DNA from: Microgenomates group bacterium GW2011_GWA2_44_7 | GTDB taxonomy: Bacteria > Patescibacteriota > Microgenomatia > GWA2-44-7 | NCBI GenBank assembly: GCA_000999595.1 | Contig: LCJH01000008.1 | Coordinates: forward strand, 1-55,896 | Length of the DNA stretch: 55,896 nt | Direction: 5' to 3' | In this document: piece after piece, positions 24,481 to 30,728 of the stretch | How positions within the stretch are numbered: position 1 is the stretch's first letter | Layout of the letters: each line of letters begins with the position of its first letter | Notes under the pieces: generated by a model | What the model saw: only the letters and a program-made list of their open reading frames with translations | Told to the model about the DNA's origin: nothing | Database searches by the model: none | Program-made: the position numbers and the translations under genes

Positions 24481-24501
24481 GTATCGCGTTAGACCTGAAA
24501 A

Positions 24502-24798
24502 TTAACCCCTTTCTCTTAAATATATTCTAGCACTAATTATTTCTTCAAGTAATTTTTGTGCGCCACTAGGATTATTTCTCACCACTTGCATGAAAACTGT
24601 GGAAAGCTGATTAAGGCGGTTAGTAACCGCTTGGTAACTTGCCAGTATCCGGCCCTGACGTGATCGCTTCCGATAGGTAATAAATGTTTTAAGCCGTTGC
24701 CACTCTCCAGCGGCTATTTCTCGCTCCAAACTGGAGTCGGTATCGTCTTTTTGTGTCTCGGATGTTTCCGTAGATTCTCGAGTCTTATCTTTTTCCAT
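24502..24798 (-). CDS. Hypothetical protein (acidic N-terminus, helical C-terminus)
   Basis: 98-aa ORF with no recognisable motif. Co-oriented with its neighbours. Confidence 0.4.
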   Translation of the reverse strand: MEKDKTRESTETSETQKDDTDSSLEREIAAGEWQRLKTFITYRKRSRQGRILASYQAVTNRLNQLSTVFMQVVRNNPSGAQKLLEEIISARIYLRERG

Positions 24799-24853
24799 AA
24801 GTCAGCTAGTCGATGGTACGAATTGTGATCTACCTTAACCGTAGAAACTGTAT

Positions 24854-25198
24854 TTAATCAGCCACAATTTCATTTTGTTCAGAGTAATATGCCGGAGAGG
24901 TGACAACCACGTATGATATGTTTCCTTCAATAAAATACTTTTGACCTGGTTGGATTGTAAGTACATCACCCTCTTGAAGCTCATAAGGCATATTTTCAAT
25001 CGTAATAGTTCCACTTCCTTTAGTTATATAAAAAAGTACGTGAAGGTCATGTTCTATAAACTGTTCTTTTTCTCCAGACGGATGCCTCCCTTTTACTTCA
25101 ATGTAAGCCGCACTAATTGCTTTTGAAGAAGCAGGATAGCTGTAAATAGTTGTAAATTCTCTCGTAATTAACTTTGCGTCGTTCTTGGCCACTTTCAT
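24854..25198 (-). CDS. Cupin-domain protein
   Basis: 114 aa. GRHPSGEKEQFIEHDLHVLFYITKGSG...GDVLTIQPGQKYFIEG fits the two-motif cupin barrel. Confidence 0.65.
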   Translation of the reverse strand: MKVAKNDAKLITREFTTIYSYPASSKAISAAYIEVKGRHPSGEKEQFIEHDLHVLFYITKGSGTITIENMPYELQEGDVLTIQPGQKYFIEGNISYVVVTSPAYYSEQNEIVAD

Positions 25199-25341
25199 AG
25201 CTGTTTATTATTGTAACTTTCGGAGCTGGGAGAGCGTACTGGGCTCGAACTCGCCTCGCTTCGCGGTCGAAGCGGGCCAATCAAAGTATATCACTTCTGA
25301 TTTGACGCCTCAGCTTAACATTCCAAAGACCAAAGAAACAC
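25199..25341 (-). repeat. Intergenic element copy R1 (5' of the cupin gene)
   Basis: Blocks ACTTTCGGAGCTGGG (25216-25230), hairpin 25253-25277, GGGCCAATCAAAGTATATCAC (25274-25294). The distal block is degenerate. Confidence 0.75.
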
Positions 25342-25815
25342 CTAGGAATTCAGAGCTTCTCTAATTTGATTAAGTAAATTTTCGTAATCCTTGTACAGAA
25401 ACGTATTTAATCCAGCTGTTTTTGCTGCCTGAATATTTTCAGGTGCATCGTCCACATATAGTATTTCATTAGGACCTAATTTGAGGTGAGAGGCAACTAA
25501 CCCATACGCCTCAGAGGTTTTTTTATCTGTATTCATTTTTTTAGCTGACAAAACCTCTTTAAACACCGGCTGGAGATACGGCTGAAATTCGGGAGAATCT
25601 TGAATGACATCACTGGTAAAAATATAAACAGGGATTCTGTCTTTTAGAGATTTATAAAAATCCAAGAGCCCAACATTCAACTCAAAAAAGTCAAGCGCAT
25701 TATAGCTTGGTTTTTCAGACAGTTCTTTGTGCAGAGCATTCAGACTACCTTGATAGCTCTTATCTTTAGGGAATAACAAAACTCTGGAAAAATCACTGAC
25801 TATTGCTTTGATCAT
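25342..25815 (-). CDS. HAD-superfamily hydrolase
   Basis: N-terminal IKAIVSDFSRVL (DxS variant of motif I) and C-terminal ILYVDDAPENIQAAKTAGLNTFLY (motif IV). Confidence 0.7.
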   Translation of the reverse strand: MIKAIVSDFSRVLLFPKDKSYQGSLNALHKELSEKPSYNALDFFELNVGLLDFYKSLKDRIPVYIFTSDVIQDSPEFQPYLQPVFKEVLSAKKMNTDKKTSEAYGLVASHLKLGPNEILYVDDAPENIQAAKTAGLNTFLYKDYENLLNQIREALNS

Positions 25816-26009
25816 CTCTTAACTTTTACTTTCTCTTTATTTCTGTCACTTTCGGAGCTGGGGAGCGTACTTCGCTCGAACTCGCTTCGCGGTCGGAGCT
25901 GACTCGCCTCGATTCGACGATCGAGTCGAAGCGGGCTTATCAAAATATATCACAACAAAATTAGGTTCAGAACTTTCAGCCTTAAAAGAACACCTTCACC
26001 TAAGATCAT
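25816..26009 (-). repeat. Intergenic element copy R2 (5' of the HAD gene), internally chimeric
   Basis: CACTTTCGGAGCTGGGG 25847-25863. A second CGGAGCTGA at 25894-25902. Hairpin 25906-25936, GGGCTTATCAAAATATATCAC 25933-25953 and TTCAGCCTTAAAAGAACACC 25975-25994. Confidence 0.75.
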
Positions 26010-26750
26010 TTAAAGAAATCTAAAACTCGAAAAGACCTGGTTAAATGCTTTGGCGAAATCTACACCATATTCAGGAGAATCTGGTTGCAAATTGCCAGGG
26101 TTTTCGGATCCATACGTGAGCACGTAATATTTTCCGTTTTTATTAAGGATTGTCATTCTATCTTCTCCCTCAGAGTCTCCACTTTGTGAATAATTATGGA
26201 CAGTAATACCACCAATCACGCTGTCTGCAATACGAGTGTATTTCGGCGCAAAGTTAGGGTTACTCCAGATTTCTCCTACCTTGAGTGAATAAATATCATC
26301 CAAAAACGTGTCAAGTCCTGAAGTTTTGCGGGTGACTACGCTAAGTTGATTGGTGGGTCGGTATGACTCGGTTCCAGCAACTTGTAGGGTAATTAGTAAT
26401 TCTTTATTGTAATACTGTCCTTGATAAATCCCGCCCTGAACCACGAAATTGTCTGGGTAATTAAATGTAAATGCACTAAAGGGATCTGTATACAATTTTC
26501 CACTCATAGCTGTCTGGGAGGCGGGCAAAGAAGAAGGACTGGATTGTATCTGACTAGTTTGCTGCTCTTGAAGCTGGTTGAGCTTTTGTTGTAGTTGATA
26601 ATTTTGGTAACCAAAATACACTAGCCCCCCGGTCATAAGAAGAAATACAAGACCGACAACGATTATTAAAGGTTTAATACTTTGTTTTACGGGGGCCGGA
26701 GAAGAAGCCGGTTGAGTAATTGTTGGTTGAGGTGCAGATTGTTCTTCCAT
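26010..26750 (-). CDS. Hypothetical membrane-anchored extracytoplasmic protein
   Basis: Pro/Ser/Gln-rich N-terminus, one TM segment (LIIVVGLVFLLMTGGLVYFGY), then a ~170-aa domain of unknown type. Confidence 0.5.
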   Translation of the reverse strand: MEEQSAPQPTITQPASSPAPVKQSIKPLIIVVGLVFLLMTGGLVYFGYQNYQLQQKLNQLQEQQTSQIQSSPSSLPASQTAMSGKLYTDPFSAFTFNYPDNFVVQGGIYQGQYYNKELLITLQVAGTESYRPTNQLSVVTRKTSGLDTFLDDIYSLKVGEIWSNPNFAPKYTRIADSVIGGITVHNYSQSGDSEGEDRMTILNKNGKYYVLTYGSENPGNLQPDSPEYGVDFAKAFNQVFSSFRFL

Positions 26751-26963
26751 AATTTCAGTTTACTCTGTTTCTCGTTTCTGTTGCAAACTGTCCATTTCTT
26801 TCGCTTTGGAGCTGGTAACCGTACTTCGCTCGAACTCGCCTCGATTCGACGATCGAGTCGAAGCGGGCCTATCAAAGTGTATCACGCGAGAGTCGGGTTT
26901 AGAACCTTTAACATTAAAAGAACACTTTTGCATACCCAATTTCGCAGTACTTCAAAAACCTTG
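26751..26963 (-). repeat. Intergenic element copy R3 (5' of the hypothetical gene)
   Basis: CGCTTTGGAGCTGG 26802-26815, hairpin 26838-26868, GGGCCTATCAAAGTGTATCAC 26865-26885 and TTTAACATTAAAAGAACACT 26907-26926. Confidence 0.75.
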
Positions 26964-27815
26964 TTAAGACTTAACCGATTTGGTAAGGTAATCACGGTCT
27001 GCCTGTGTTATCCCTTCCATGTCGTTGGTCGATACTATTTCATCAAATAGTTTTATGTAAGCATCAATAGTGTTTGATAATGCCGTTGTATATGATTCTT
27101 TATTGTGCCCTTCTGGTACTGTTTTTTCTAACATATTTAGAATCTCTGGAGTGAATTTTGCTTCGAGACGCCTGTTCCCTTCATTCACTAATCCCAATTG
27201 ATAGCAGGCTAACCTATTCAAAACATTACTCCGCATGTATTCGATAGCGTCCCTTGCTTCCCACAGTTCACCTCTCTTAATTTTTCCATGTGTATAAACA
27301 ATCCAACCCCAAAACCTATCTTCAAAGTATTGGAGATTGTCTGCTGCAGGTGAAACGTCTTCGGTAACCCCTAAACAAGCTTGTTTCCAACTATTTAATT
27401 CGCCTGTTTTATCAAGAACTATAAATGCACCTTTCCCTTTAGCCACAGGTTTTAAATCTTCAGAAATTTTGTACTCATAATCAACGTGAATAGGATAACT
27501 GCCTATATAAAAAACAATTATTTGATTTGGGTTTTTAAGATGAGTAGCTGGAAACTGGGTTGCAACTTCAGCAATGCCTTCTCTTAGTTGTTGATGGTCT
27601 TTTATAACCGTTTCTCTTTCTTTAGTCGGAACAATTAAGTTGATGTCCAAATCTGAATATAGATCGGGAGATCCGTTAGCAAATGAGCCTGTTAAATAAA
27701 TCCCTTGTACCCGATGATCTGCGGCCAGTAAAGCTACAGCTTTCTGTAGGATTTGATAATGTTCCGGAAATTTCTCAAGTTTTTCTATCGGTAAAGAGAC
27801 TGATTGTAAATCCAT
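26964..27815 (-). CDS. Nucleotidyltransferase-domain protein, aminoglycoside 6-adenylyltransferase (ANT(6)/AadK)-like architecture
   Basis: GSFANGSPDLYSDLDINLIV (NTase G-S...D.D). The C-terminal helical region FWGWIVYTHGKIKRGELWEARDAIEYMRSNVLNRL resembles the AadK family. The substrate is not inferable. Confidence 0.55.
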   Translation of the reverse strand: MDLQSVSLPIEKLEKFPEHYQILQKAVALLAADHRVQGIYLTGSFANGSPDLYSDLDINLIVPTKERETVIKDHQQLREGIAEVATQFPATHLKNPNQIIVFYIGSYPIHVDYEYKISEDLKPVAKGKGAFIVLDKTGELNSWKQACLGVTEDVSPAADNLQYFEDRFWGWIVYTHGKIKRGELWEARDAIEYMRSNVLNRLACYQLGLVNEGNRRLEAKFTPEILNMLEKTVPEGHNKESYTTALSNTIDAYIKLFDEIVSTNDMEGITQADRDYLTKSVKS

Positions 27816-28060
27816 GTAACTTATTGATGGTTAATATAAATAACTTCTCACTTCTGTTAGTAGTCGTCACTTTCGGAGCTGGGACCGTAATTAACTCGGA
27901 CCTGCCTGCCGGCAGGGCCTATTTGGCCAGGACGAGTATATCAAACAATCTCTACTCGACCCAGATTTCTCACTTATCACTAAGATAAAAATCGGTCCTC
28001 GCTATTACATAACAGCTGATTAAATTCTACAACTTCAGGCTTTAAAAGAACATTTGAAGA
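27816..28060 (-). repeat. Intergenic element copy R4 (5' of the nucleotidyltransferase gene), most divergent
   Basis: CACTTTCGGAGCTGGG 27868-27883, palindrome CCTGCCGGCAGG 27905-27916, GGGCCTAT...GAGTATATCAAAC 27915-27946 and TTCAGGCTTTAAAAGAACAT 28034-28053. Confidence 0.7.
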
Positions 28061-28099
28061 TAAGGTCTGTCAACAAATGGGGTAAAATTAGTTTGCTAT

Positions 28100-28453
28100 A
28101 TGAGCAAATATTTCCATATGATCTGGTATTTCTCCCTTCCGATTATTTTTCTGATTGTTATTGTTCACTTTTTGAAAGATATTACTCAAGACATCCTTAA
28201 GATTCATACTTTCTTAGACTTGCTCGGAAATGTAAATGAAGATTTATCAGTATTTCCACCATTCATCAGACAAATAATTGTCGCTTTAGGATTTATTTCA
28301 ATTGGAATTGAAGCGTTTCTAATCGCGGCAATACCTAAAGTCATAAAAAATAAGGAAAGTTCAAAACTCGAAAAGTATGTAATAGCCTCTCTTTTATTTT
28401 TGGTAATTTATTTCTTATCTGTAATTCTAATGGATCCACGCTATCGTCTGTGA
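28100..28453 (+). CDS. Hypothetical small membrane protein (3 TM)
   Basis: 117-aa ORF with hydrophobic segments. No motif recognised. Confidence 0.45.
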   Translation: MSKYFHMIWYFSLPIIFLIVIVHFLKDITQDILKIHTFLDLLGNVNEDLSVFPPFIRQIIVALGFISIGIEAFLIAAIPKVIKNKESSKLEKYVIASLLFLVIYFLSVILMDPRYRL

Positions 28454-28608
28454 AATTGTTACAATCCTCCGCCGAGAATAAAATTAAACTACCGAATGAT
28501 CTCGGAGTTTATTCGCCTGTGGCGGAGTGAACGAACCCTTTTTAGGGAGCTGGCAGCACAAAATACTAGTTAGTGATCTGTCTTAGTCGCATGGACTAAA
28601 ATAAAAAA

Positions 28609-29421
28609 ATGTCAATAGAAATATTGTCTTGGAATATTTTGAGTGGTGGTTTTAAAGATTACGGTAGTCCAGAAAAAAGACCTGAGCGAATTGATGGATT
28701 AGCTAGTGTTATCAAAGAGCTGAAGCCAGATATTGTCAGTTTAGTTGATACCCATAGATGGACAGACATATTTACCGTCACCCAGCTTAAACAAATTTTT
28801 GGATATCCTTTCGTTCAACCAATAAAACTGGATGATGAAAGATTAATTGGGATAGGGCACGACAACGGCGTTACCGTTTTCTCTCAAATCGCCGGAACGG
28901 AAATGCAAACAATTTGGCTAGCTACCCGAAATGCTATTAAAACTAAAGTTGGCGGAATAGATATTTTTACTATTTATCTTGATGACGTAAATGAAGATAC
29001 CAGGATAAAGCAAATAAAAGCAGTTTTAGAATTGGTAGACATCTATACCCCTACAATAATTACAGGTGATTTAAACACCTTTGACCGTGGCGATCTGGCA
29101 CAAACCAACAAACAGTTAGAGGTATTAGGTTATAAGTTCCCTGGACCTATGAAAAGTATGAAAAGATCATTAAATGAGATGAAACGGGGAGAGGTAACAA
29201 AAATACTTGTTAACGCTGGTTTTATTGATATGGGTAAAGGAAAAGGTAACACTGTTCCGGCAAAGTTATTTCCGCTTCCCGTAAATGATCCAGTACTCAG
29301 ATTAGATTATGCTTTCGGAAACAACCTAATAAAGCTAGAAGAATTCAAGGTTCTAACTGACGAAAAATACGGAAATCTATCTGACCACTATCCGATTTGG
29401 ATGCGAGTTTCCAGTTTGTAA
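28609..29421 (+). CDS. Endonuclease/exonuclease/phosphatase (EEP) family protein
   Basis: SWNILSGG at the N-terminus, GDLNTF, and LSDHYPIW at the C-terminus. Confidence 0.75.
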   Translation: MSIEILSWNILSGGFKDYGSPEKRPERIDGLASVIKELKPDIVSLVDTHRWTDIFTVTQLKQIFGYPFVQPIKLDDERLIGIGHDNGVTVFSQIAGTEMQTIWLATRNAIKTKVGGIDIFTIYLDDVNEDTRIKQIKAVLELVDIYTPTIITGDLNTFDRGDLAQTNKQLEVLGYKFPGPMKSMKRSLNEMKRGEVTKILVNAGFIDMGKGKGNTVPAKLFPLPVNDPVLRLDYAFGNNLIKLEEFKVLTDEKYGNLSDHYPIWMRVSSL

Positions 29422-29567
29422 CCGACAGGTATTTTTTCTTAAGGTCGATTCCAGTATCTGGTCAATAATTTTCTAGGCTAACAATTTGAGATGCAAAACA
29501 AAGCCTCGGACTCGAAAAAGTCGAATTTATTAAGGAAAATAGTAATGTTTTGAATTCGATTGCCGTA

Positions 29568-29641
29568 TGGAGCGGGATACGGGAGTCGAACCCGTCTTTA
29601 TACCTTGGGAAGGTATCGTTGAGCCGCTCAACTAATCCCGC
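29568..29641 (-). tRNA. tRNA-Gly (anticodon CCC), CCA encoded
   Basis: Minus-strand fold: GCGGGAT-TA-GTTG-AGCGGCT-CAAC-G-ATACC-TTCCCAA-GGTAT-AAAG-ACGGG-TTCGACT-CCCGT-ATCCCGC-T-CCA. Confidence 0.85.
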
Positions 29642-29904
29642 ATGTTTTTGAGGTACACTTCGAGCCTTCTTTTGATAAAACCTCTGCCGAAACCTGTTTT
29701 TAGCTGACCTTCTCGGCGGATTGAATCTGCTTTACAAAGGCATGCTTCATAGTATACCAATTTTAACTTGTCATATCTTTTTGTAGATGGAACTTCTTTT
29801 AAACGGTGTGAGGCAATCCTCCCTCTTAGATCAGCAGTAGAGCCTACATAAAACATCGACAATTTACCCTTGGCAAAACACTCTAAAACGTACGTATAAA
29901 ACAT
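29632..29904 (-). CDS. GIY-YIG nuclease-superfamily protein (COG2827-like small ORF)
   Basis: FYTYVLEC...LSMFYVGSTADLRGRIASHR...LVYYEAC...REGQLK. The ORF is open from TTG at 29952, but the ATG at 29904 matches family N-termini. The stop codon TAG (29632-29634) lies inside the tRNA-Gly gene. Confidence 0.75.
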   Translation of the reverse strand: MFYTYVLECFAKGKLSMFYVGSTADLRGRIASHRLKEVPSTKRYDKLKLVYYEACLCKADSIRREGQLKTGFGRGFIKRRLEVYLKNMRD

Positions 29905-29974
29905 GCTTTTACCTTGCCCGCCGAAAGTTTCACATTCAGGCGGGTCCGCCAATATACAACTTATTTTTGGCGGA

Positions 29975-30008
29975 GGAAGGTATCGTTGAGCCGCTCAACT
30001 AATCCCGC
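29975..30008 (-). repeat. 34-nt exact duplicate of the tRNA-Gly 5' half (positions 1-34, ending inside the anticodon)
   Basis: 29975-30008 is identical to 29608-29641 (ggaaggtatcgttgagccgctcaactaatcccgc). Confidence 0.9.
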
Positions 30009-30143
30009 TTTTCTCCTTTTCTCCATTGTATACTTCGATAACTCAAGGGATAAAGCCACGCAAAACCATCTCTTTCAGCACAGAAACAATTATCTCATAT
30101 TGCTAGAGAGGTGTGACGAGGCTAACTTGACTTTAGATCTTAT

Positions 30144-30728
30144 CTAGCGGGGAACTGTTAAGGCTAATCCTTGGAACAGGCGGTTTGGATTTGTTCCGAT
30201 CTTGTCTTTATTGGCATTATAAAGAGCGGTCCATTTATAACCATCACCATAAGCAGCCACCGCGATCTTCCAAAGGGAATCACCCTTTACAGTGGTATAA
30301 GAATTTCCTGTAATTGTTGTCTCAATTTTAGGTTTTTGGGCAACAACTTTAGGAGTTCTAACCGGAACATCCGGGATAGTCAGTTTTTGTCCTGCGACTA
30401 TACGGTTAGGCTGGTTTAAATTATTCGCCTTGGCAATGTCAACCCAGTTGTATCCGGAATTATTAAAATGTTGCTGAGATATTTTCCAAAGGCTGTCACC
30501 GCTTTTAACGGTGTATTCCGAAGGCAGCTTGCCGGGTGTATTTGTTGCCTGCGGTGAAGTTACGCTCTCAGTTGCAGATTTTGGAAGAATTGAGCCAAGA
30601 TTATTTCGATTATTGACCCATCGAAAAGCCAGGATGCCGATAATCAAAACGACAACTGCTCCTAGTAAAATGCTTAAATTTGATTCATTTAATTTAAGCG
30701 ACTTTAAAGCGGTTTTTAGTTCAACCAT
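30144..30728 (-). CDS. LysM-repeat peptidoglycan-binding protein
   Basis: N-terminal TM segment. Two LysM modules (YTVKSGDSLWKISQQHF...GQKLTIP; YTTVKGDSLWKIAVAAY...GLALTVP). Confidence 0.8.
   Translation of the reverse strand: MVELKTALKSLKLNESNLSILLGAVVVLIIGILAFRWVNNRNNLGSILPKSATESVTSPQATNTPGKLPSEYTVKSGDSLWKISQQHFNNSGYNWVDIAKANNLNQPNRIVAGQKLTIPDVPVRTPKVVAQKPKIETTITGNSYTTVKGDSLWKIAVAAYGDGYKWTALYNANKDKIGTNPNRLFQGLALTVPR

Follow-up and report, generated by a model that had tools for sequence, protein, structure and literature searches.

A GIY-YIG gene between two copies of a tRNA-Gly 5' half

The 55.9-kb stretch of DNA that we analysed as a whole (henceforth the window; 55,896 nt, contig LCJH01000008.1 of Microgenomates group bacterium GW2011_GWA2_44_7) carries on its minus strand an element of ~0.37 kb (about 370 bp), built around a gene for a small GIY-YIG nuclease and joined to a tRNA-Gly gene. 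The functional tRNA-Gly(CCC), with an encoded CCA, occupies 29568-29641 (minus strand), as stated in the initial annotation of this DNA, which was made from the sequence alone: ARAGORN calls the tRNA there and the Rfam tRNA model scores 57.6 bits. The exact repeat described in that annotation was recovered as well. The first 34 nt of the tRNA (GCGGGATTAGTTGAGCGGCTCAACGATACCTTCC, 29608-29641) recur at 29975-30008 on the same strand with 34/34 identity, while 0 matches are expected in shuffled sequence, even with 3 mismatches permitted. This orphan half comprises the acceptor 5' strand, the D arm, the anticodon stem 5' strand and the loop up to the second anticodon base, after which the repeat ends (nt 34 of this tRNA; 35|36 in standard numbering).

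Between the orphan and the functional tRNA lies the nuclease open reading frame (ORF; 29632-29904, minus strand), which most likely encodes 90 aa from an ATG at 29904 to a TAG at 29632-29634. The ORF runs into the tRNA gene that lies 3' of it, such that its last 10 nt are within the tRNA and its stop codon is T8-A9-G10 of the tRNA. The initial annotation described the 333 bp between the repeats as containing essentially nothing but this ORF. This description needs revision: besides the overlap with the tRNA, it overlooked a structured leader of 70 nt between the orphan half and the ATG, made up of a double hairpin (hairpin 1, TCCGCCAA...TTGGCGGA, 29945-29974; hairpin 2, CCCGCCTGAATG...CTTTCGGCGGG, 29917-29944; both minus strand) and an 11-nt stretch, CAAGGTAAAAG (29906-29916, minus strand). 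The order orphan, ORF, tRNA given there holds, with the conserved hairpin module to be added to it.

Read directly, CAAGGTAAAAG equals tRNA nt 35-46 (CAAGGTATAAAG in the tRNA) minus one base. It represents the remaining anticodon loop and the stem 3' strand and closes the anticodon stem of the orphan around the hairpins, so that the orphan reads as an anticodon arm with ~58 nt of hairpins in its loop. At other loci the equivalent stretch matches each locus's own tRNA: CAAGCAT in L029 and CAAACT in L033 (L-numbers are labels of fetched loci or contigs). A -10-like hexamer, TACAAT (30025-30030, minus strand, read from the sequence), lies 16 nt 5' of the orphan half. A permissive Rfam scan of 29400-30200 returned the tRNA alone; the hairpin module matched no known RNA family, intron or ribozyme.

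A duplication of this kind could arise by misassembly, as the initial annotation cautioned. The neighbouring LysM protein is on record on 23 contigs, and we fetched ten representative LysM places, from 10 samples and several assemblers. Eight of the ten conspecific contigs extend across all of the structure and match the window at 100% identity in that region; the other two are short and stop in or just past the upstream repeat copy. An identical structure in independent contigs means that the duplication is real, and the concern about an artefact can be laid aside.

The gene encodes a bare GIY-YIG domain

The Pfam GIY-YIG model (PF01541) matches residues 17-88 of the 106-aa ORF call, and thus nearly the whole 90-aa protein, with 43.7 bits against a curated cut-off of 22.6 (E=3.4e-11). 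Five residues are invariant in 42/42 aligned homologues, namely Y5, Y19, R29, H33 and E65, which we take to be the catalytic Tyr of GIY, Tyr of YIG, Arg, His/Tyr and metal-binding Glu, respectively. The best matches in a profile search of PDB sequences were the UPF0213 proteins 1zg2 (E=6.2e-6) and 1ywl (E=6.8e-4), the nearest solved relatives by sequence being the UPF0213 proteins BH0048 and EF2693; next, and weak, came Slx1, a nuclease that cuts branched DNA (PMC7017083). An AlphaFold model (pLDDT 91.6) shows one compact domain with the strand/helix order E-E-H-E-H-H and a C-terminal helix, and the top Foldseek matches were 1zg2, At-HIGLE (7wme) and Slx1 or Slx1-Slx4 chains, at probabilities of 0.8-1.0 and modest E-values (0.008-0.2). 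The predicted fold is thus the alpha/beta URI domain of the GIY-YIG superfamily. The ORF had been described as a COG2827-type GIY-YIG nuclease. The superfamily is borne out by Pfam, with UPF0213 as nearest relative, whereas the placement in UPF0213/COG2827 is only loose, since no NCBIfam model matches the protein. From the invariant catalytic residues and the nearest structures, UPF0213 and Slx1, we infer that the nuclease is active.

A double hairpin with DNA-like covariation accompanies the nuclease gene

The spacer between orphan and ORF is a conserved module of ~60 nt with the consensus YCCGCC-N-AAA-G...CA-TTT-N'-x-GGCGGR then YCCGCC-x-N-AAA-TG...C-TTT-N'-GGCGGR. Both hairpins are supported by an alignment of 34 loci and by a covariance model, R1. 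In the alignment 95.5% of the stem cells are paired and changes on both sides occur in 19/23 pairs, values that were reached by 0/500 shuffles, and sliding the 3' partners lowers pairing to 34-52%. Two positions show all four Watson-Crick combinations, and the pair formed by alignment columns 53 and 76 appears as A-T, G-C, C-G, T-A and T-G across loci. The stem cells comprise 737 Watson-Crick pairs, 7 G-U and 7 A-C, and the covariance model scores the module on both strands. With no G-U excess and with scores on both strands, the pairing covaries in the manner of DNA, unlike typical RNA, and looks as though it has been selected at the DNA level.

R1 detects the module in the window with 77.2 bits (E=1.7e-18) at 29912-29979, as the sole copy, and finds it at nearly all GIY-YIG loci. 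Across 540 kb of related metagenomic contigs no module was found save in the window's own strain and in L088, a decayed GIY-YIG locus in which the ORF remains amid tRNA fragments. Since the module was found only at GIY-YIG loci, hairpins and nuclease gene belong together, and the module is probably the key cis element of the system. We considered that the hairpins might be independent miniature inverted-repeat transposable elements (MITEs) and rejected this, because in the window and the 540 kb of contigs they are confined to GIY-YIG loci; no dispersed copies were seen there, and a Pfam scan of neighbouring ORFs gave no transposase.

Some loci have three hairpins rather than two (L005, 2859-2979 and 3359-3479; L014). 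In L005 the left and right copies of 121 nt are identical, which suggests a very recent event. One ORF subfamily, located at Leu, Lys, Gln, Thr and His tRNAs (L022 2359-2435, L060, L066, L068, L075, L076, L078, L031 3757), has in place of the double hairpin a second, unrelated single palindrome (about CCCGCCTGCAACGCTATGCGTAGCATTGCGGGCAGG). The same palindrome is nested within main-family hairpin modules or orphans in L010, L013 and L025.

The arrangement recurs at tRNA genes of many genomes

The protein has more than 150 homologues at 47-64% identity, those named being from Patescibacteria, and a scan of GTDB species genomes gave 442 relatives. Locus counts given hereafter cover the best 80 of the 442 GTDB loci, which hold 85 ORFs, mostly from Patescibacteria; some taxonomy labels are doubtful, such as 'uncultured Gammaproteobacteria'. 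A same-strand tRNA gene lies directly 3' of the ORF in 74/85 cases (47 Gly-CCC, 12 Gly-TCC, 3 Gly-GCC and 12 other: Thr 3, Val 2, Gln 2 and one each of Leu, Ile, Lys, His and Ser), and the hairpin module lies within 120 nt 5' of the ORF in 68/85. The stop codon falls at tRNA nt 8-10 in 40/74 and anywhere inside the tRNA in 57/74. The initial annotation had proposed a search of the genome for other GIY-YIG ORFs flanked by duplicated tRNA halves, and a search across other genomes was productive: an upstream match to the local tRNA (score of at least 12) is present in 42/74 ORF-tRNA pairs from other genomes, nearly always to the 5' part. In ~15 loci the orphan is exact over nt 1-34, though tRNA sequences vary widely between loci; in many others the orphan has decayed while ORF and tRNA remain intact.

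At ~22 loci the orphan stops in the anticodon loop and at ~14 in the D-loop, and L011 is inserted in the T-loop; these assignments come from reading the sequences, partly by eye, because an automatic classification script was noisy. The anticodon loop, named as the insertion site by the initial annotation, is thus the site here and one of three loops used across the family. That a minimal mobile GIY-YIG gene had entered a tRNA gene is supported, as dozens of tRNA genes that are unrelated in sequence carry this architecture. Judged by these features, the locus is one copy of a widespread cassette family, mainly of Patescibacteria (candidate phyla radiation, CPR, bacteria).

Literature searches on GIY-YIG proteins with tRNA genes, anticodon loops, Patescibacteria/CPR, COG2827, UPF0213 or disrupted tRNAs uncovered no account of such an arrangement; the one meeting report that looked promising dealt solely with archaeal tRNA introns and CPR rRNA introns. 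Phage-borne spread was rejected, given a single relative of the protein among the 2.9 million viral contigs of IMG/VR.

Two variant arrangements were also noted. In verrucomicrobial relatives (L058 2902-3300, L063 2569-3300, L079) the arrangement is mirrored: the ORF lies 21 nt 3' of a tRNA-Val(GAC) and is followed by a duplicated tRNA 3' part with a GC-rich palindrome and the same 21-nt flank. In L139 (2982-3360) and L144 (5270-5650) a distant GIY-YIG homologue (~33% identical) lies 3' of a tRNA-Gly(TCC), preceded by a GC palindrome and then CCCGCTCC, which resembles an acceptor 3' remnant.

Complete copies bring a replacement tRNA gene into a resident one

In 13 loci a second hairpin module lies just 3' of the functional tRNA, and where these loci were inspected, the displaced remainder of a tRNA follows behind it. 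The cassette is thereby flanked by a direct repeat consisting of a few nt of loop and stem, the hairpins and a few more nt. When the outer 5' and 3' pieces were joined in silico, they gave a valid tRNA-Gly with the same anticodon as the inner one (L005, L010, L021, L032, L035, L158). The outer tRNA is no mere copy of the inner: in L010, L021, L032 and L035 the two share only 47/74 to 64/73 positions, which means that the cassette arrived with a tRNA gene of its own and entered a resident one of the same specificity. Insertion into a tRNA gene, as originally proposed, is thus directly visible at these loci. The proposed duplication of the 5' half describes the window correctly but not the complete copies, which carry a whole replacement tRNA gene. 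The cassette accordingly consists of the gene for the 90-aa GIY-YIG protein, the ~60-nt double-hairpin DNA module and a replacement tRNA or its 5' part.

Two modules are present in one orphan in L016, L018 and L048, as hairpin-only insertions in further loops, and L018 also has tandem downstream remnants. The left and right copies of L032 have an identical hairpin 1 but differ in hairpin 2. Resolution of a cruciform at the base of the tRNA stem was considered as the source of the flanking repeats and discarded, as the repeat boundaries do not consistently fit. In L158 (906-1092) and L096 (988-1087) a tRNA-Gly(CCC) is split in its anticodon loop by an insert of ~116 nt with inverted-repeat ends (CCCGTTAAATTTT...AAAATTTTTACGGG) that has no ORF but contains another, complete tRNA-Gly(CCC) that is different; joined together, the outer halves make a valid tRNA.

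The window form lacks both the right-hand hairpin and the displaced 3' half. The search for the latter yielded nothing but a T-loop-like motif at 29508-29525, which does not match tRNA significantly. The stretch there, TTCGACTTTTTCGAGTCC (minus strand, 43 nt 3' of the tRNA), has two T-loop-like motifs and lies exactly at the breakpoint of contig L212 (see below); it may represent a displaced tRNA 3' part that has decayed, or the remnant of an old attachment site (att).

Signs of gain, loss and movement of the cassette

The distribution of the cassette is patchy. In L084, whose PolX is 63% identical to that of the window, the order PolX, tRNA-Asp, LysM, tRNA-Gly(CCC) is kept, with neither ORF nor orphan. 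The filled site of the window and the empty site of L084 thus form a presence/absence polymorphism at the same position, as is characteristic of homing genes. An empty site in relatives had been proposed as a check on the insertion, and the uninterrupted, syntenic L084 provides one outside the species, though not within it. Contigs of closer relatives, sought via PolX, end just 5' of PolX, and only L084 was informative. Between window and L084, 75/77 positions are identical in tRNA-Asp and 72/74 in tRNA-Thr, as opposed to only 49/74 in tRNA-Gly (29568-29641 versus L084 3647-3719). By this comparison the tRNA-Gly gene was replaced in one lineage; alternatively, a larger replacement may have spanned the variable downstream region. 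Among 80 metagenomic matches to the 5' end of this tRNA, 76 are intact tRNA-Gly genes, none with a GIY-YIG homologue 5' of it. An element-specific tRNA type was accordingly ruled out: the D-arm type GTTGAGCGGCTCAAC is that of a common native tRNA-Gly that occurs without the ORF in Microgenomates-like contigs.

L002 and L003 share one 455-bp block, 87.5% identical, that extends exactly from orphan +1 to the tRNA 3' end; in the genes around it, identity is 64-68% and the order is inverted with respect to the block. Within each locus the orphan agrees with the tRNA at 34/34 positions, although two positions distinguish the tRNAs of the two loci; their hairpins diverge by 19%, with changes that compensate each other. 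In L063 there is an extra tandem ORF copy, 99.6% identical, that is absent from L058, while the flanks of the two are 92-96% identical; read from the sequences, the duplicated unit is the ORF plus a tRNA remnant.

Probable expression from the tRNA promoter

A generic sigma-70 scan did not call the TACAAT at 30025-30030, and we therefore resorted to a simple count of -10-like boxes (at least 5 of 6 consensus bases) with controls. Such a box lies within 30 nt 5' of the orphan in 14/32 loci, compared with 3/32 for the functional tRNA and 5/32 for random positions. In the empty-site contig L084, a TATAAT lies ~13 nt 5' of its tRNA-Gly. The suggestion that the ORF is transcribed from the tRNA promoter is thus probable: the TACAAT is probably the native tRNA promoter, now driving orphan, hairpins, ORF and tRNA, which, with no terminator-like site found within the locus, probably form a single transcript. 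As a speculation, cleavage by RNase P at tRNA +1 would remove the stop codon of the ORF and could in this way limit nuclease synthesis.

A probable selfish cassette in tRNA-gene loops

We consider it fairly probable, for the proposal as a whole, that the locus is a selfish cassette that invades tRNA-gene loops and spreads in a homing-like manner. The cassette here sits in the anticodon loop, after the second anticodon base and before the third. Beside the native promoter stays the 5' part of the native gene, as the orphan capped by hairpins; the nuclease gene comes next, and a complete tRNA is re-formed downstream, so that the host keeps its tRNA. To spread, the nuclease would start a break at a tRNA-gene loop or at a hairpin structure, and recombinational repair from a cassette-bearing copy would copy the element, with homology provided by short conserved loop and stem sequences across species and by the whole tRNA within a population. 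Repeated rounds would keep the orphan identical to the functional tRNA, and the window form may have arisen when a complete copy underwent a deletion between its two 3' halves.

A bolder proposal, which we consider quite unlikely, is that the family moves in a novel way: its bare 90-aa nuclease would be structure-specific and would derive its specificity from nucleic-acid structure and not from a DNA-binding domain. The structure in question would be the double hairpin, folded within a tRNA-like arm, and/or cloverleaf-like single-stranded tRNA-gene DNA, and the tRNA-matching segments beside the hairpins could act as a guide. Because such a cassette would disable the host tRNA gene and supply its own, the element would be hard to lose, in an addiction-like gene replacement.

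Several observations weigh against homing-like spread of a selfish cassette. The only empty site is in L084, a fairly distant relative whose tRNA-Gly sequence differs, and no conspecific empty allele was found: the identical element is present in all 8 spanning contigs among the 10 fetched. The element is fixed in this population, which speaks against recent movement in this lineage. In L012 the element is found at this LysM-linked position too, and a further Woesebacteria genome has it near PolX, which means long vertical residence as well. Pfam and the model show no separate DNA-binding domain in the 90-aa protein, unlike in known GIY-YIG homing endonucleases. The functional tRNA keeps an intact loop, so simple homing that cuts the empty target leaves self-avoidance unexplained, and the proposed mechanism also leaves the role of the hairpins unexplained. 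The deletion route to the window form, with its missing right-hand hairpin and displaced 3' half, is a conjecture, and we infer the copying mechanism from footprints alone.

The hairpins could instead be the mobile ends themselves, as in IS200/IS605 elements or integron attC sites, with no classical homing by allele copying. The GIY-YIG nuclease would then act on folded DNA (a hairpin or cruciform with the tRNA stem), and hairpin-bounded cassettes would enter single-stranded or extruded loops of tRNA genes. This main alternative, which is rather unlikely, accounts well for the module at both ends of complete copies, the hairpin-only insertions in further orphan loops, the use of loops of all three arms with no shared sequence, and the DNA-level pairing that scores on both strands. 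It is also in keeping with the cutting of branched DNA by the nearest solved relatives of the protein, and L032, with hairpin 1 identical between left and right and hairpin 2 not, is as expected for a crossover between the hairpins. Like attC sites, IS200/IS605 hairpins and repetitive extragenic palindromes (REP) or MITEs, the module is made of imperfect palindromes with conserved bulges, keeps structure over sequence and lies at element boundaries. Unlike them, it is embedded in a tRNA-gene loop beside a GIY-YIG ORF, is not dispersed (no free copies in the window or the 540 kb of contigs), and comes with no IntI, HUH or DDE enzyme. We know of no joining of DNA strands by GIY-YIG enzymes, so transposition of this type would still need host repair; moreover, the tRNA-derived stretches beside the hairpins match the local target, which fits homology-directed repair equally, and the direct-repeat boundaries are not consistently at the base of the tRNA stem.

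The remaining explanations do without a mobile cassette of either kind. A stable vertical operon, in which an immobile host GIY-YIG gene is co-transcribed with tRNA-Gly and the orphan and hairpins are a regulatory leader from a tandem duplication, would suit the structured leader, the fixation, the shared LysM-/PolX-linked position and an ORF that is intact, with invariant catalytic residues, across very divergent lineages. It is very unlikely in view of the outer halves from a tRNA unlike the inner one, the displaced 3' halves, tandem remnants and several loops that point to insertion events, the patchiness (the empty syntenic site, the 76/80 same-type tRNAs without an ORF), the 12 loci at non-Gly tRNAs, the L002/L003 block and the recent extra copy in L063. 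Archaeal non-canonical introns sit in tRNA loops, as the hairpins do, and L158 has a tRNA-Gly split by an inverted-repeat-ended insert that carries another tRNA; one might thus read the hairpins as an RNA-level feature, an intron or the joining scaffold of a split tRNA made from the orphan half. This we hold to be extremely unlikely, since a complete uninterrupted tRNA adjoins the orphan here (and the ORF in 74/85 cases), the orphan's 3' partner is missing in the window apart from the functional tRNA, orphans decay in many loci with ORF and tRNA intact, the stems show no G-U excess, and the Rfam scan gave no match to a group I or other intron or to a ribozyme. Finally, tRNA genes are classic integration sites, and tyrosine-integrase islands and prophages resemble the locus in their tRNA-gene site (often the anticodon or T loop), direct repeats and regenerated functional tRNA; the region just 3' of the tRNA-Gly also differs between strains, and misassembly can create repeats. 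An integrase-island footprint or an assembly artefact is nevertheless effectively refuted. No integrase or other tyrosine or serine recombinase was found among the neighbouring ORFs scanned with Pfam (LysM, EEP-family, PolX, HAD, nucleotidyltransferase), and the element is ~0.37 kb where islands have kilobases. The 5' 34 nt are duplicated and not the 3' end, so that the element sits between promoter and tRNA; displaced 3' halves at some related loci lie behind hairpin modules, again unlike tRNA islands. The eight identical spanning contigs and the recurrence in dozens of independent genomes speak against an artefact. In setting the element apart from integrase-bearing ones, the initial annotation was right.

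Relation to known systems and implications

As a homing-like cassette, the element resembles free-standing GIY-YIG homing genes (T4 Seg, I-TevI type) in having a nuclease gene in or beside a conserved gene, patchy among relatives and likely spread by break-induced copying. Phage T4 SegB, a GIY-YIG enzyme encoded in a tRNA gene cluster, reportedly acts within the tRNA gene region. The known enzymes, however, have ~200-270 aa with a sequence-specific DNA-binding domain as opposed to the bare 90-aa catalytic domain here; they come with no conserved double hairpin, duplicated target half or target-supplied stop codon; and they belong to phage and organelle elements, whereas IMG/VR holds just one relative of this protein. 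Closer in logic are the organellar mobile GIY-YIG and LAGLIDADG ORFs that carry a replacement gene piece and turn the displaced piece into a pseudogene (e.g. Allomyces mitochondrial atp6); 'fractured genes' with inserted homing endonuclease genes are a related case. In both the organellar ORFs and the present family, a nuclease ORF travels with a partial copy of its target, so that the host retains a working gene while its native fragment is displaced. Organellar ORFs have protein-coding targets and usually replace the 3' end, whereas the present family targets a tRNA loop, supplies the 5' part or a whole tRNA, and has a hairpin module at the junctions. The cassette works like a target-carrying homing gene and like a tRNA integrative element but lacks features that define each.

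The protein shares its single URI/GIY-YIG domain with UPF0213/COG2827 members (B. halodurans BH0048, E. faecalis EF2693, E. coli YhbQ, B. subtilis YazA) and with Slx1, which differs in requiring Slx4 and having a zinc finger. The literature searched gave no biological role or tRNA linkage for bacterial UPF0213/COG2827 members. If the proposal is true, at least one branch of this large uncharacterised family of bacterial cousins of Slx1 would have a biological role. The cassettes would be the smallest self-contained nuclease-based bacterial mobile elements known to us (~370 bp, one 90-aa protein and one structured DNA module) and the first found to settle on the 5' side and in the loops of tRNA genes and yet rebuild the tRNA. 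They would provide a route for horizontal tRNA gene replacement in bacteria with streamlined genomes and would explain tRNA gene fragments, and possibly also the contig breaks that CPR metagenome assemblies show at tRNA-Gly loci. A minimal structure-specific nuclease with a defined hairpin could, in that case, serve as a small, programmable DNA-structure-dependent nuclease system.

The region 3' of the tRNA-Gly gene

The region just 3' of the tRNA-Gly is variable (window 24481-29567, with a breakpoint at ~29525; L084 2982-3646; L212; L214). In the window, the ~5 kb from tRNA-Thr(CGT) to tRNA-Gly encode a HAD hydrolase, an unknown ORF of 246 aa, an ANT-like nucleotidyltransferase, a small ORF and an EEP-family protein, and the corresponding interval of L084 holds a single RNase_H_2 gene. 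The conspecific contig L212 diverges from the window exactly at 29525, and in L214 identity falls to 83% within the EEP gene. Several contigs end at or just past the region of ORF, orphan and hairpins (L017, L028, L037, L040, L215-L217 and others), which suggests, but does not show, that short repeats at tRNA-Gly loci break short-read metagenome assemblies.

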